Assembly: GCA_951406725.2 (NCBI GenBank)
Contig: OX597825.1
Location: 71,672,001-71,736,000 of the forward strand
Direction of reading: 5' to 3'
DNA: 64,000 bases
Origin: Octopus vulgaris
Lineage: Eukaryota
Part shown: positions 16,978 through 39,598 of the stretch, piece after piece
Position numbering within the stretch: the stretch's first letter is position 1
How the letters are laid out: the number at the start of each line of letters is the position of its first letter
The notes under the pieces: model-generated
The model's input: the letters and a program-made list of their open reading frames with translations, nothing else
The model's database searches: none
Told to the model about the DNA's origin: nothing
Program-made: the position numbers and the translations under genes

Positions 16978-19900
16978 ATGAAGCTACAGACATTGCTAAG
17001 CACATATGTTTTAACCGTCCTTCTACAACATTCAGACGAGGAACAGCGAAGTTCAAATTCCCATCGGTATCTAACACTGCAACTTGTGGCAGATATACAT
17101 AATTACAACGACTGGAAATTAGGTCGTTTCTACACAATTGAAACCATGATTGATTTAGCCACAAACAAAATTTTTTTTTTCGAAGATTCAGTAACTCTGC
17201 GCGTTTACTTCAGCGATTTACTTGTTGGTTATCCCCTCCAATTTTTGCAATTTGTCAACAATCAACCATACGAAATGACTTACAACCAAACCTGTGATGG
17301 TGATTATAAAAGTGCCGGAACTTTCTGCCAACAGTCCGATGTAGGTGGTAAGTCGTACAAAACAAAAGGATACTGCTGTCCTGAAAGTCTCCAGATGCAT
17401 TGTATTCTATATGATCCTTTATGGTATTCTGTTAATACTCTCGGCAACCCTATAATTATTCAAAGTCTTATGGTAGAGGTCTTTAGAAAAGAAAAACACG
17501 CTGTAAAAGTAGTGCAAAGTGTCGCACAAAGCAATCGTTTTCTTGTCAACGGCAAAACTATCGAGAAGAGAGACGACGACCTTTATTTCACGGCCCGCGT
17601 TCTTCACCAGACCAACTTTAGTTGTAGACAGATAATTTGTTCAAATTTAAATTATTTATTGATACCCGTTGCAAACTCGGCCCTAAACGATAGAAATCCA
17701 CAGGCAAAAACGGACATAAAAGGTGTTAATGAGTACTTGCTTATTAAGAAAAAATATTTTGATTTAAAAGGAACATCTTGTGGAGCAATAGGAATTGTTG
17801 CCGGCGCCGTTTTGAAAAAGACCGACCGTTGTACAAAATCCTTTGTCAAAACTTGTTTCAAGAATCAACCATTGAGTTTCTGGCTTGAAGATAATTTGAA
17901 GAAATTGAACAATAATGTGGAGTCAGACAGATCAAAATATTTCCTATCGCATTTTACCAAGCCAATGGCTCCTTATACTGGAAAAGTTCCCGGTTGGGTA
18001 TCAAATAAATCGTTGTTATTTGTAGAGAATAAAAGGCATTCAGTTCGGGCACAGCTAGATATTATAATAAATCTTAACAAAGATCTTCTTCCTTCTGCAA
18101 TTCCATTATTAAGTGAAGGATCCATTGGAACCTTGTACGGCCACCCATTTTCAGATAGTGGCCACCAATATGAGATTGGTATAAATGTAATTAACATAGG
18201 ACTGATTACAGGAAACTTTAAAGTATTATTAAACTGTGAACCTGATAGACAGTTCAAGACTTATACGTTGACCCCATTTCAAGGAGAAACAGTGATATTT
18301 TTTCACAAGTTTGAATCTATTGAAGGAGGCATTATTCCTGGAAATACTGCCAAATTACAATTTCCAGTGCAGTGTGTAATAGAATTATGGAATGAAGATC
18401 AGAAAACAGTTAAGTCAAAATACCTTATTTTAAAAAGAAACAAACTCTGTTTATGTCTAGTTGGTTGTAAATGTAGTTGTGATCCACCATATCCGTGTGA
18501 AGTGAAAAAAGCTAAAATGATCCATTCTCCGGTCACGGCTATTTTCCGAGACGAAACATTAGTTATTTTCGGTATAGTTTTACTTTTTCTTATGATACTT
18601 AATATGTTAAAACTCATTTTTGGATTTTGTTTTCCGGTATCTATTGGCGAAGCAGGGCTGTGTGTTTTTATAAAAAGCAACTATCAGTGTAAATATTTCG
18701 ATAAAGATCTTCAATATAAAGCTGTAAAATATAATAAAGACGGTTACCCAATGCACCCCAAAACGAAGCGAAGAGTGCGTGCTCTGTCACAAAAGCAAAT
18801 GGGGATTATGAATTTCTTTTTTTTCTTTTATTTGCCATTTATTGGCATTCATTGGCTTTTAGTACGAAAATATATAAATAAAAAGAAATCAGATATAATG
18901 TGGAATAAATTAGAAACAAATATCCAACTGATTCACGAAGGTGACGAAGAGCGTAGTTTGCACGAATCTTTACGAAAAACAACATGTCATTATTCATCAT
19001 CAGATCACTCCGAATTGCCAGATCATATCGAAGAAAAACGGAGTGCTATATTAAATGAATATGGGAAAAGAGTATGCAGACCAAAACGTCGGGAAGATTC
19101 GATTTGCAAACCGTCGAAAAAATCACAGAAACAATCTTCAGAAGACTATCGATCAAAGACTAAATTTAAAAGCATGCTTGCTAATATCATGAGAACTGAC
19201 AAGGATTCTACGTCATCAGAAAGTCTAGAAAGTCAGAAAGGTAAGAGGGATAGATTATCAACATTTCCGTTGACTAAATCGACAAAACGACAGACGTATA
19301 GTACTTCTATAGGACACGAGACTAGTTCATCATCGTTTGAGCCTCCATGCCAACCAACCAGTGAATCTATGAAAGGTATAATTCAGTTTCCACTATCAGA
19401 ATTAATTCTCGATGTTCCTCAAGAGAAGCCACCAGAGGATACTGACAAAAGAAGGATTGAGCGTGGCAATGTAGACGCAACAACTCTCTCTGAAATTGAA
19501 ATGAGTGATATTTCCTGTAGAGAAGTTGGGAAAAAGCCGTCTAAGACCAGCATCTTTAAAAAAAAGCTGTCAAAACCAAAACGGAGCACACCACGTGTTT
19601 CCTGGACAGAGGCAGATTTTGAAGAACAAGTGTGCAGCAGCAAAGAAGGTAAACGGCGTTTTGGATTCAAAGGAAAATCACGGGTGTCATCGAGTAAAGA
19701 ATCCAGAGAAGTGCCAGTTGGACCGTTAGGTGAAGAGAGAGGTAGAGCATCACCAGCTAAGTTAGGTAGCTTTTCTGATGTTTCCGCTCAAGGAGTTGAG
19801 TGCATGCCTCTAGTAAAATCTATGAGTGCGTTTCCCGTACAGGAGAGGGAGTATGTTTCATCAAGACAACCATCGACTACAATGCCATTAACTTCGGAAA

Positions 19901-37900: not shown

Positions 37901-39598
37901 ATATCTGGAAGAGAGAGTATACCTGGTTCTATGATGGACCAGCGGAGTCAGATATCTGGAAAAGTGAGTACTCCCACTTCAATAAGAGACCAACGAAGTC
38001 AGATATCTGGAAGAGAGAGTATTCCTGGTTCAGTAACAGACCAGCGGAGTCAGATATTCGAGCGAGAGGGTACCTCCAGTTCAATGACAGACCAACGAAG
38101 TCAGATATCTGGAAGAGAGAGTACTCCCAGTTCAATGAGAGACCAACGAAGTCAGATATCTGGAAGAGTGAGTACACCCAGCTCAACGACAGACCAACGA
38201 AGTCATTTATCTGGAAGGGAGAGTATTCCTGGTTCAATGATGGAGCAGCGAAGCCAGATATCTGGAAGAGAGGGTACCCCCAGTTCAATGAGAGACGAAC
38301 GAAGTCAGATATCTGGAAGAGAAAGTACTCCTGGTACAATGACGGGTCAGCAGAGTGAGATATCTGGGAGAGAGGGTAGCCCCAGTTCAATGAGAGAGCA
38401 ACAAAGTCAGATATCCAGTCGAGAAAATATTCCCAGTTCAGCGACATCAAGATCCACCTCACATAGACCATTATCAGAAATATCAAGTGGCAGATCTATT
38501 AGGCAGGACACTAACACTTCTGTTGGTGAAGTCCTTGATGAGCTTAGTAGAAGTTCTCGCACTCAATCATCATTGGCGGATTTTCCAGCTGGAATTCAAC
38601 CCAGAGATTCGTATGTAGTCTCATCTCAACAATCCAGGTATGAAAGTGATGTTGCTTTAACTGAGACATCGAATGAATCGTCTAGATCTCAAGCGACTAC
38701 GGTAATTAGGAATGAGTCTGATTCTGCACGTGCTCTTTCAAAATCAAGCAGTAGTCATTCTTCGCAAACATCAAGGAGTTCCTCTTCAGATAAAATTAGC
38801 ACCAACTCAAATGCTTTAAGAAGTACTCTTGACAAAAGTCAAAATAATAATATAAGTGTTAAAAAATATGTTGGGAAAACTGCAAAAAAATTTGACAAAC
38901 CTGGTACCTCCCAAAAGAAAAAAAGTACTAACTTAAATAGCAAGAATTTTCTTGGTAACAGAAAGAAAAATCAAATTGATTCAAGTCAAAATGCAGACCA
39001 AGACAGATCTGATGACCTAATGGATAAGTCAGAAAATAATAGTTCATATGCTGCAGATGGCTTCCCAATGAAACAGGCCCAGAAGAAAGACAGGACACAA
39101 AAGTCCCAAGGAAGGGAAAATATTTGTGAAGGAGAGTATGTTTGTGAAGAAAAAAATGAATCCGGTCTTGACAACAATTCTAGCAATAATAAAGCAGTTG
39201 CATCTACATCTAGGTTTTGCAAAGATACTATAAAAGTATGTAGTGAATCAGCTCAAGGAATGCAGTCTTCAACAACAGACAAAGAATATGTTAACAAACT
39301 GGTCAAATCTGAGAAAGTCTATTATAATTTTCCAGAATCCTCTCGTAACCTCATAAACTCTGGAGATAAATTCAGTCTTTATGGAGCCCTTCGAAAAGAT
39401 GGGAATCGTTATGTTTTCCGCTTAATGCAATTCCTTGAACAGACCTATGAAAACATTGATGGAATAGCACGTCCATTGCAAGGAAGGAAAATATTAATTT
39501 CAAACTCTTACGTGTTTAACAGATATCTCGATTGCTCTGGAGTTCTTTCATTCATTACAAAGAAGCCCAAGTATCCATGTCTGAATAATCCAGATTAA
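16978..39598 (+). CDS. HAP2: Giant single-exon HAP2/GCS1-like membrane protein (~7,540 aa after repairing 5 frameshifts) with a ~17 kb Ser/Arg-rich tandem-repeat tail
   Basis: ATG 16978 opens a signal-peptide-like MKLQTLLSTYVLTVLLQHS. HAP2 motifs occur in order: YPLQFLQFVNNQPYE, C-D...TFC...G...KGYCC, HCILYDPLWYSV..LG.P, YLLIP, YLLIKKKYFDLKGTSCGAIGI...C.......CFKNQPLSFWLED, Ig-like V-INIG...G.F...C, CLCLVGCKCSC, then hydrophobic segments. ORFs 16801-25236, 25368-31340, 31337-32596, 32628-34466, 34384-36858 and 36659-39598 join by +2, -4, -2, -2, -2 indels in C or AG runs. Confidence 0.85.
17770..17892 (+). other. HAP2-GCS1 signature segment (ij-loop region)
   Basis: GTSCGAIGIVAGAVLKKTDRCTKSFVKTCFKNQPLSFWLED vs the remembered family pattern G.ECNKIGV...AF..Q...C......CL.NQL......D. 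Confidence 0.75.
18559..18864 (+). other. Membrane-anchoring region: long hydrophobic segment (18559-18672) and second hydrophobic segment (18799-18864) followed by a basic RKYINKKK patch
   Basis: LVIFGIVLLFLMILNMLKLIFGFCFPVSIGEAGLCVFI and MGIMNFFFFFYLPFIGIHWLLV; both conserved in paralog 1. Confidence 0.75.
21040..38440 (+). repeat. Coding tandem array based on a 51-bp (17-aa) monomer with 153/156-bp higher-order units
   Basis: Monomer e.g. RSQISGRESIPSSMRDE; trimer MSIPSSITDRRTEISER-ESIPSTIADQRSRLSER-ESTIRSISDQRSQISGT; near-perfect monomer block ~35560-37060. Confidence 0.95.

Follow-up and report, generated by a model that had tools for sequence, protein, structure and literature searches.

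The analysed window comprises 64,000 nucleotides of Octopus vulgaris DNA (assembly GCA_951406725.2, contig OX597825.1) and contains an intronless, single-exon gene of 22.6 kb at 16978-39598 (+), referred to here as gene B, with an intronless tandem paralogue, A, just upstream. Gene B encodes a membrane protein of ~7,540 aa and ~850 kDa that derives from a molluscan HAP2. The features of the locus are as follows.

1..1144 (+), 3' part of tandem paralogue A, whose Met lies 1,253 bp before the window
16550..17049 (+), 5' flank and first ~24 codons of gene B, 95-99% identical to paralogue A
16978..17034 (+), start Met, then a putative signal peptide judged by eye
17035..18558 (+), HAP2-like ectodomain with domains I, II and III and a Cys-rich stem (Pfam, PDB, model)
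17374..17403 (+), strand c to strand d, with a cd connection of 7 aa; conserved Arg and two Cys gone
17779..17856 (+), ij loop; cysteines kept, Phe replaced by Val and Gln by Lys
18559..18627 (+), transmembrane helix (hydropathy, model)
18799..18864 (+), second hydrophobic helix (conserved in animal HAP2s), then a basic run
18865..21060 (+), low-complexity linker, alignable to paralogue A over the first ~160 aa
21061..38440 (+), coding repeat region with a 51-bp (17-aa) unit
23561-33978 (+), 153-bp three-unit higher-order array, ~68 copies
35458-38440 (+), homogeneous 51-bp array, ~59 copies
39266..39598 (+), conserved C-terminal domain of ~105 aa and stop codon (spiralian/hemichordate HAP2s)
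39783..39788 (+), first AATAAA 3' of the stop codon, candidate polyadenylation signal

As assembled, 16978-39598 is divided over six overlapping open reading frames, interrupted by five frame breaks.

16789-25236 (+), ORF 1
25188-31340 (+), ORF 2
31253-32596 (+), ORF 3
32481-34466 (+), ORF 4
34291-36858 (+), ORF 5
36614-39598 (+), ORF 6
25218..25226 (+), frame break 1, C9 where sister units have C7 (+2), from unit comparison
31287..31290 (+), frame break 2, (AG)2 versus (AG)4 in 44 of 56 motif matches (-4), from unit comparison
32507..32512 (+), frame break 3, (AG)3 instead of (AG)4 (-2), from unit comparison
34355..34368 (+), frame break 4, (AG)n run 2 bases short, assembly error as shown by four of four read sets
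36640..36645 (+), frame break 5, (AG)3 instead of (AG)4 (-2), from unit comparison

All five breaks are slips of 2-4 bases in (AG)n or C runs, i.e., the one C9 run and four shortened (AG)n runs, and three of them fall in units of deviating length (158 versus 156 bases, and 149 and 151 versus 153 bases). Correction of the five slips yields 7,542 codons, and the six ORFs very probably constitute one 7,542-aa frame, the single protein being a reconstruction. One break in five was checked against reads: at 34362-34363 two extra bases are present at full depth in all four read sets. The in-frame segments downstream of the breaks contain no interrupting stop codons, and in a second species the frame survives two 30-bp insertions. 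Introns were considered as the cause of the breaks and rejected: breaks 2-5 lack any short GT-AG candidate that has a pyrimidine tract, and break 1 offers four weak-donor candidates. Read sets X8-X10 (62-69 M letters, 0.80-0.88 of words) and X18 are RNA-like in size and depth, from which we infer transcription. The initial annotation had proposed one giant protein of ~7,500 aa appearing as six ORFs; the ORF list bears out the latter, and the former holds as well, with slips explaining the breaks and the assembled sequence at 34362-34363 failing in all four read sets. The locus thus shows how assembly slips can hide a 22.6-kb single-exon gene.

Residues 1-640 of gene B are confirmed as HAP2/GCS1 by descent, with a class II fold. 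The Pfam profile PF10699 (HAP2-GCS1) matches residues 56-484 with an E-value of 1.1e-24 (87.4 bits, cut-off 27.4), and five PDB sequences match, comprising four named HAP2 chains and 5ow4 (T. cruzi HAP2). The ectodomain model has a pLDDT of 85.9 and leans on the 66-row HAP2 alignment from which it was made; folding of the single sequence without alignment gives a pLDDT of 32. In a Foldseek search with the model the top 8 rows are all HAP2. Known HAP2 structures include those from Chlamydomonas (5MF1, 6DBS and 6E18), Arabidopsis (5OW3), Cyanidioschyzon (7S0K) and T. cruzi (5OW4), and the model aligns to 7S0K with a VIA Z of 19.8 (rmsd 9.1, 408 aligned) and to 5OW4 with a VIA Z of 16.7 (rmsd 3.9, 208 aligned). 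A trimer prediction with three copies of model residues 16-348, in which the alignment was not used, scored 0.00 with an uncertain fold and speaks neither for nor against a trimer. In a FastTree tree of 34 rows gene B groups with animal HAP2s, inside a mollusc group (SH-like support 95), its long branch making the placement tentative. With the known HAP2/GCS1 fusogens it shares the three-domain fold, most disulfides, the Glu of strand b, a putative N-terminal leader and a membrane anchor. Unlike them, it has a second hydrophobic helix and misses two disulfides, 16 of the 20 conserved Cys columns being kept while the cd-loop pair and an N-terminal pair are gone.

A further difference concerns the fusion loop between strands c and d. 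This cd loop comprises 7 aa in gene B versus 40 in Chlamydomonas, has no equivalent of Arg185, and is predicted by the model to be a 4-residue turn. PMC5332557 reports that in Chlamydomonas HAP2 R185 binds E126, F376 and Q379, and that R185A/Q or deletion of 184-186 abolishes fusion and liposome insertion; according to PMC6089408, Arabidopsis HAP2 without its fusion helix has zero transmission. In the alignment with 63 other rows, the cd-loop Arg is kept in 47 of the 49 rows that have a residue there, and the two cd-loop Cys in 45 of 47 and 51 of 51, respectively. Gene B has none of these three residues. The surroundings have changed as well: the ij-loop Phe, present in 60 of 60 other rows, is Val278, and the Gln, present in 53 of 60, is Lys281. 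Glu99, the E126 equivalent in strand b, is kept, whereas its salt-bridge Arg is absent. Of 140 proteins, 52 could be scored for the CC-HC cysteine spacing, which is 7 aa in gene B, paralogue A and the distant orthologue P0002, 11 aa in three tick proteins and 25-1,716 aa in the other 46; an apparent 6-aa cd loop in P0109 was dropped as a misalignment of an N-terminally truncated fragment. The three proteins sharing the cd deletion form one clade within the molluscs (stem 1.24, support 100, FastTree), and a long stem is expected after a change of role.

Measured against these data, the HAP2/GCS1 ancestry of the initial annotation is borne out by the Pfam score, the fold and the tree, its profile and Foldseek checks both return HAP2, and the molluscan lineage implied by its 'cephalopod-like' agrees with the tree. 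The HAP2 motifs do follow in the right order from Met 16978, but the fusion loops, ~20-50 residues that normally separate GYCC from HC..YDPLWYS, are gone. Its wording of a gamete-fusogen ectodomain is not supported, as the cd loop with the R185 equivalent, essential in Chlamydomonas and Arabidopsis HAP2, is deleted, and gene B is filed as HAP2-derived rather than as a canonical HAP2 fusogen.

Among named proteins, those placed closest to gene B in the tree are 'Hapless 2-like' proteins from Solemya (KAL5009314), Pecten (XP_033735139), Lineus (XP_064623729), Tubulanus (XP_074662084) and Mytilus (CAC5374079). Gene B has the architecture of the bivalve, nemertean and brachiopod members, with a juxtamembrane hairpin, a second hydrophobic helix and a C-terminal domain, but these keep a cd loop of 27-38 aa with the Arg and the Cys pair, and have a linker of 94-334 aa versus ~6,800 aa in gene B. 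Another relative is P0002, a Logan protein of 1,163 aa (36% identical), perhaps from another cephalopod. It too has the 7-aa cd loop and the C-terminal domain, lacks the four cysteines missing from gene B, and has a repeat of period 10 in the linker that gene B expanded; its linker, however, is 411 aa long with another repeat unit, and the partner Glu is also gone. Word-index protein searches at E 0.001 (near lengths, 1,513-4,816 and 4,817-5,000 aa) gave no match; known relatives were missed and a 7,500-aa protein is beyond the index.

Hydropathy peaks at residues 518-550 and 608-629, and the tail that follows is probably cytoplasmic, as favoured by composition and basic flanks despite the two hydrophobic helices, which could let the tail face outward. 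An atlas search with the juxtamembrane piece gave no match. The ~6,900 aa after the membrane, compared with '500 residues or more' for long HAP2 tails elsewhere (PMC8777248), are mostly S/R/E-rich, as first described (S 24%, R 13%, I 10%, E 10%). The tail is near charge-neutral (1,040 K+R versus 1,007 D+E) with 0.6% Asn, and its hydrophobic windows never exceed 0.74. It contains 316 copies of the 17-aa unit (13-21 in 5 shuffles) and 529 S/T-x-x-D/E motifs (at most 336 in 20 shuffles), whereas RxxS/T motifs are rarer than in shuffles (225 versus a mean of 276). The repeats evolve under purifying, protein-level selection, with a pN/pS of 0.29 and no stop codons in 27 units. Alleles number 46 synonymous and 50 replacement, versus 106:331 possible. 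In the degenerate part (run X18), 7 synonymous and 24 replacement codons occur among the 39 of ~84 fixed differences listed, and such near-neutral differences imply that much tail sequence may not matter.

The protein closes with the C-terminal domain of the family: its last 110 aa correspond to the conserved domain of spiralian HAP2s, intact and with ~41% identity to a bivalve HAP2. One copy of this domain was found in the genome; it has no Pfam family, and an atlas search returned only prokaryotic leads below 0.9. An unnamed domain common to spiralian HAP2s is thereby brought to light. Since this domain closes the protein, the tail is a ~6,800-aa expansion of a linker that spans 94-411 aa in relatives, and not, as initially described, a giant repeat tail fused on at the end.

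Paralogue A (798 aa) shares the 7-aa cd loop but stops early, without repeats or C-terminal domain, and no remnant of either was seen in the interval between A and B. The dN/dS between the two genes is 0.54. Outside 16550..17049 they have a dS of 0.58, so that the nearly identical stretch, which covers promoter and signal peptide, is probably the product of gene conversion. No HAP2 copy besides A and B was found in the genome. A canonical intron-split HAP2 was not found elsewhere in it, one search being stricter at first look, so that small exons could escape.

The tentatively preferred reading makes the protein of gene B a membrane tether of gametes, derived from HAP2 but without insertion of a hydrophobic loop. 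With the part that inserts into the partner membrane lost, it would no longer act as a one-sided, virus-like fusogen. Its most likely place would be the membrane of male germ cells or sperm, where it would act in adhesion or tethering, the ectodomain binding either itself or a protein partner carried by the egg. The linker would be disordered and heavily phosphorylatable and is probably cytoplasmic; it could serve as a long spacer or cortical scaffold, carrying the C-terminal domain to an intracellular partner, and paralogue A would be a short version that shares the promoter region and is probably co-expressed. Hydra HAP2 is specific to spermatogenic cells (PMC2766252); animal HAP2 expression data were found in the literature only for Hydra, and the search found no bilaterian HAP2 fusion assay and no title or abstract on cephalopod HAP2 ('hap2' in a cuttlefish genome paper denotes haplotype 2). 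Its origin is probably a processed copy that took over from an intron-containing parent. Introns in HAP2 genes usually lie between strands b, c and d (PMC6089408), and if the copied transcript had skipped the c-d exon, the missing introns and the clean deletion would have a common cause; no poly(A) remnant was seen to back retroposition.

Retention in gene B of domains I-III, the ij-loop cysteines and the Glu counts against the tether reading, as does the compatibility of a short loop with fusion in Fsx1. The main rival, somewhat less likely, is that gene B is still the gamete fusogen, with a rebuilt tip. Either the 4-7-residue cd turn and the bc loop would touch the target membrane, or the protein would be needed on both sides or be helped by a partner, as in the case of Fsx1 and EFF-1; the giant tail would do no more than localise or regulate it. 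The entire ectodomain fold is retained and no further HAP2 was found, and the tip is an indel hot spot of the family according to PMC5332557 and PMC6089408, the latter also describing three small loops in T. cruzi HAP2. PMC9259645 reports that archaeal Fsx1 fuses cells bilaterally with a functional 6-residue cd loop, as short as that of gene B, and that GPI-anchored AtHAP2 still fuses, which leaves tails free to vary. The Lys at the Gln position could perhaps stand in for the lost Arg beside the kept Glu, but P0002 has neither that Glu nor that Lys, and the Arg is essential where tested (PMC5332557). Moreover, a single residue of the cd turn is hydrophobic, and the bc loop, a polar stretch, shows no conservation between A, B and P0002. 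Archaeal Fsx1 and nematode EFF-1/AFF-1 share the class II fold (Foldseek E 1e-12 and 9e-12), but identity is ~10%, and gene B shows no sign of bilateral fusion, domain IV or metal sites.

A broader scenario, which seems unlikely, is that a whole cephalopod lineage swapped its HAP2 for a processed, loop-less copy that still merges sperm and egg in a loop-independent, two-sided or receptor-assisted manner, having grown in the octopus to ~850 kDa with a repeat linker that sets distance or builds a cortical platform at the fusion site. Nature would then have run a deletion test of the HAP2 mechanism, and no other fusexin in these searches would come near this one in size. Gene B is a maintained HAP2 without exactly those residues found essential by mutagenesis in algae and plants. 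If it fuses without them, the mechanism changes; if gene B is repurposed instead, cephalopods use another fusogen, A and B being the only copies found and the animal needing one if neither fuses.

It is improbable that gene B has a structural role in somatic tissue, as a spacer of the titin or mucin type anchored by a HAP2-derived head and possibly with an extracellular tail, any gamete role having passed to A. The two hydrophobic helices permit an outside tail and A is of normal size, but a basic run follows the second helix, the domain after the tail is C-terminal in all relatives, the converted 5' region is common to A and B, and A, which sits on the longer branch, has the more decayed ij loop and is without the C-terminal domain. 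Very improbable is that some breaks are real, so that translation would halt after ~2,750 aa at the first stop (25236) or the locus would be in decay, with no 7,500-aa protein in this individual: reads cover one break in five, (AG)n and C runs slip in vivo too and the array length rests on one assembly, but the read-checked break is an assembly error and three others are of its type, the downstream segments lack stops, purifying selection acts on the repeats and nothing has broken the C-terminal domain.

A shortened cd loop without the Arg is also found in the HAP2-like proteins of ticks (Rhipicephalus, Ornithodoros and Ixodes). Unlike in gene B, it measures 11 aa and keeps the Cys pair, and its position on a separate branch of the tree points to an independent reduction.

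An ORF scan of the window (C12 71672001-71736000 of a 2.80 Gb source assembly, from a host we take to be an octopus, given its mollusc tree position and its repeat families) reveals six long, overlapping plus-strand ORFs at 16789-39598, in a block where the plus strand is A-rich. Read as one frame from the Met at 16978, these form gene B. Its residues 1-640 match Pfam HAP2-GCS1 in a profile search (E 1.1e-24) and solved HAP2 chains in a PDB sequence search. An ectodomain model built on a 66-row alignment (pLDDT 85.9) has HAP2 structures in its best eight Foldseek rows, the next ones being Fsx1, viral class II proteins and EFF-1, and VIA-align places it on Cyanidioschyzon HAP2 (7S0K) with Z 19.8 and an rmsd of 9.1 over 408 aligned residues. 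On this sequence and model evidence the descent of gene B from HAP2 is secure, and the HAP2/GCS1 identity that the initial annotation gave to the N-terminus is borne out by both profile and structural model.

All five frame breaks in gene B are length changes of 2-4 bases inside simple runs, one in a C run (C9 versus C7 in sister units) and four in (AG)n runs, each 2 or 4 bases short. The array copy number derives from one error-prone assembly, and reads cover one of the five breaks, the one outside the long arrays (34110-35460, four of 24 listed read sets). At this break, reads of X1 and X2, either of which may come from the source DNA, and of X8 carry an extra AG behind 34363 at full depth, and those of X18, from a more distant organism, an extra CA behind 34362, along with two further 30-bp insertions in the region that preserve the frame. 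Twenty-seven of the 153-bp units contain no stops in the read frame, with a pN/pS of 0.29; the other two frames contain 87 and 48 stops, with ratios above 1. A bivalve HAP2 query matches both ends of the locus in a genome search. Twelve of the 138 HAP2-like proteins retrieved have, in their C-terminal ~100 aa, a match to the final 110 aa of gene B (best E 1.8e-25, against at most 10.8 bits in 20 shuffles). This domain, carried also by P0002, P0003, P0005-P0007, P0013, P0041, P0049, P0088 and P0101, is common to spiralian and hemichordate HAP2s, was found as a single copy in the genome and matched no Pfam family. The run-length breaks, read test, C-terminal domain and selection on the repeats together make it very probable that the six ORFs are one continuous frame, 7,542 codons long after correction (about 846 kDa), in agreement with the single ~7,500-aa protein first proposed. 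Introns are not needed to explain the breaks. The protein is organized as follows:

N-terminus: putative leader
To about residue 525: ectodomain
Residues 528-550: transmembrane helix (hydropathy and model)
Between the two helices: short conserved hairpin
Residues 608-629: second hydrophobic helix, basic residues directly after
Between second helix and C-terminal domain: linker, ~6,800 aa
Window 39266-39595 (+): C-terminal domain, ~100 aa

The giant repeat tail of the initial annotation is thus present, but as an enlarged family linker capped by a conserved domain; seven relatives have 94-411 aa at the same place. Its unit is 51 bp, in part arranged as a 153-bp triple. The linker is charge-neutral, without hydrophobic segment, scarce in Asn and Cys, and enriched in S/T-x-x-D/E, with no enrichment of RxxS/T. 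Such a composition suggests a disordered, phosphorylatable spacer, probably cytoplasmic; with a two-pass topology the tail would lie outside the cell. P0002, a Logan protein of 1,163 aa, has at this place a period-10 repeat unrelated to the gene B unit, and the linker therefore tends to expand in this lineage.

Aligned to Chlamydomonas and Cyanidioschyzon HAP2, gene B lacks about 40-50 residues in the stretch that joins strands c and d, where the cd (fusion) loop is located. Among 52 scorable of 140 proteins, isoforms included, a 7-aa cd loop occurs only in gene B, its tandem upstream paralogue gene A and P0002; the loop has 11 aa in three tick proteins and 25-1,716 aa in the other 46. The outcome was the same when loops were counted in an alignment of 66 rows, 48 of which could be used after a single fragment had been left out. 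The conserved cd-loop Arg, kept in 47 of 49 other rows, is gone from gene B, as are both cysteines of the loop disulfide, and the ij-loop Phe and Gln are replaced. With these losses the earlier wording "gamete-fusogen ectodomain" is not sustained. The tick proteins P0024, P0058 and P0089 (Rhipicephalus, Ornithodoros, Ixodes) lack the Arg but retain the Cys pair, and their fusion tip has been eroded independently. The opposite extreme is seen in many HAP2-like proteins, among them P0010, P0136-P0138 (Megachile) and others in the P0015-P0050 range, with cd-loop insertions of 84 to 1,716 aa and a retained Arg-Gly-Gly..Cys motif. Fedry 2018 (PMC6089408, in part) describes the HAP2 tip as highly variable and strands b, c and d as separated by introns.

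The fold, the anchor, the cd-loop deletion, the giant selected linker and the terminal domain of gene B are established; the protein has fairly likely lost one-sided membrane insertion. In Fedry 2017 (PMC5332557, in part), folding and trafficking proceed without the HAP2 Arg and its segment, which are essential for fusion and liposome insertion; in Fedry 2018, the Arabidopsis fusion helix is likewise dispensable for folding and trafficking and essential for fusion. We tentatively favour a non-fusing tether, which by analogy with Hydra may be expressed in the male germ line, the ectodomain serving in adhesion or tethering and the linker as spacer or scaffold. Several observations count against it. 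Substitutions in the degenerate tail are near-neutral (7 synonymous versus 24 replacement codons, for part of the differences), and the Arabidopsis HAP2 C-terminus must be positively charged but is not sequence-specific (PMC2841615, in part), so that HAP2 tails may tolerate change and the expansion may in part be neutral. Furthermore, no other fusogen candidate emerged from the genome searches, and the 6-residue cd loop of Fsx1, close in length to that of gene B, is required for its bilateral fusion (Moi 2022, PMC9259645, in part), which speaks against regarding gene B simply as a dead fusogen. The chief alternative, for which Fsx1 is the precedent, is somewhat less probable than the tether: a fusogen whose tip has been rebuilt in minimal form. 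A somatic structural role is unlikely, and a truncated or decaying gene B very improbable.

Gene A, which begins 1,253 bp ahead of the window and ends at window position 1144, is intronless and encodes 798 aa; part of it is in the databases as P0001 (561 aa). It shares 57% identity with gene B over the first 640 residues and the identical cd-loop deletion, and is devoid of repeats and C-terminal domain. Despite a dS of 0.58 (dN/dS 0.54), a tract of some 500 bp spanning the start codon is 95-99% identical (window 16550-17049 versus about 1070-1575 of L002, the upstream stretch), pointing to probable recent gene conversion across promoter and signal peptide and suggesting co-expression. Genome searches, whose counts are minimum values, found no HAP2 besides A and B. 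A FastTree tree (34 rows: 30 hand-picked from 132 matches, two cluster members, and genes A and B) unites both genes with P0002 in one long-stemmed clade, placed tentatively within molluscs. Since animal HAP2 genes contain introns (PMC2766252, in part), a processed copy may plausibly have replaced an intron-containing parent.

Bivalves and other spiralians already have annotated HAP2-like genes, and molluscan HAP2 as such is therefore not new. The longest of the 132 HAP2-like matches has 2,562 aa, and long known tails comprise 500 residues or more (PMC8777248, in part). Searches of the open literature, mostly by title and abstract and with PMC7688107 in part, turned up no report of a cephalopod, loopless or giant HAP2. 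Gene B is a real, maintained, new form of HAP2.

The surroundings of gene B contain a broken LINE reverse transcriptase at 44244-45794 (-) (PF00078, E 1.4e-32), and RT-like fragments, judged by eye and without Pfam match, at 46043-46792 and 62112-62651. Non-coding repeats are:

14018-15461: GTAT run, 1.4 kb, yielding spurious ORFs
46202-46573: 124-bp tandem array
49906-51595: 86-bp tandem array
55626-56946: 184-bp tandem array

About 8 kb past the window end lies a FAR-17a/AIG1 family gene (7866-8594 (-) of L006, the stretch reaching past that end; E 5e-39), with the entire Pfam domain in one open frame and hence apparently intronless, like gene B.
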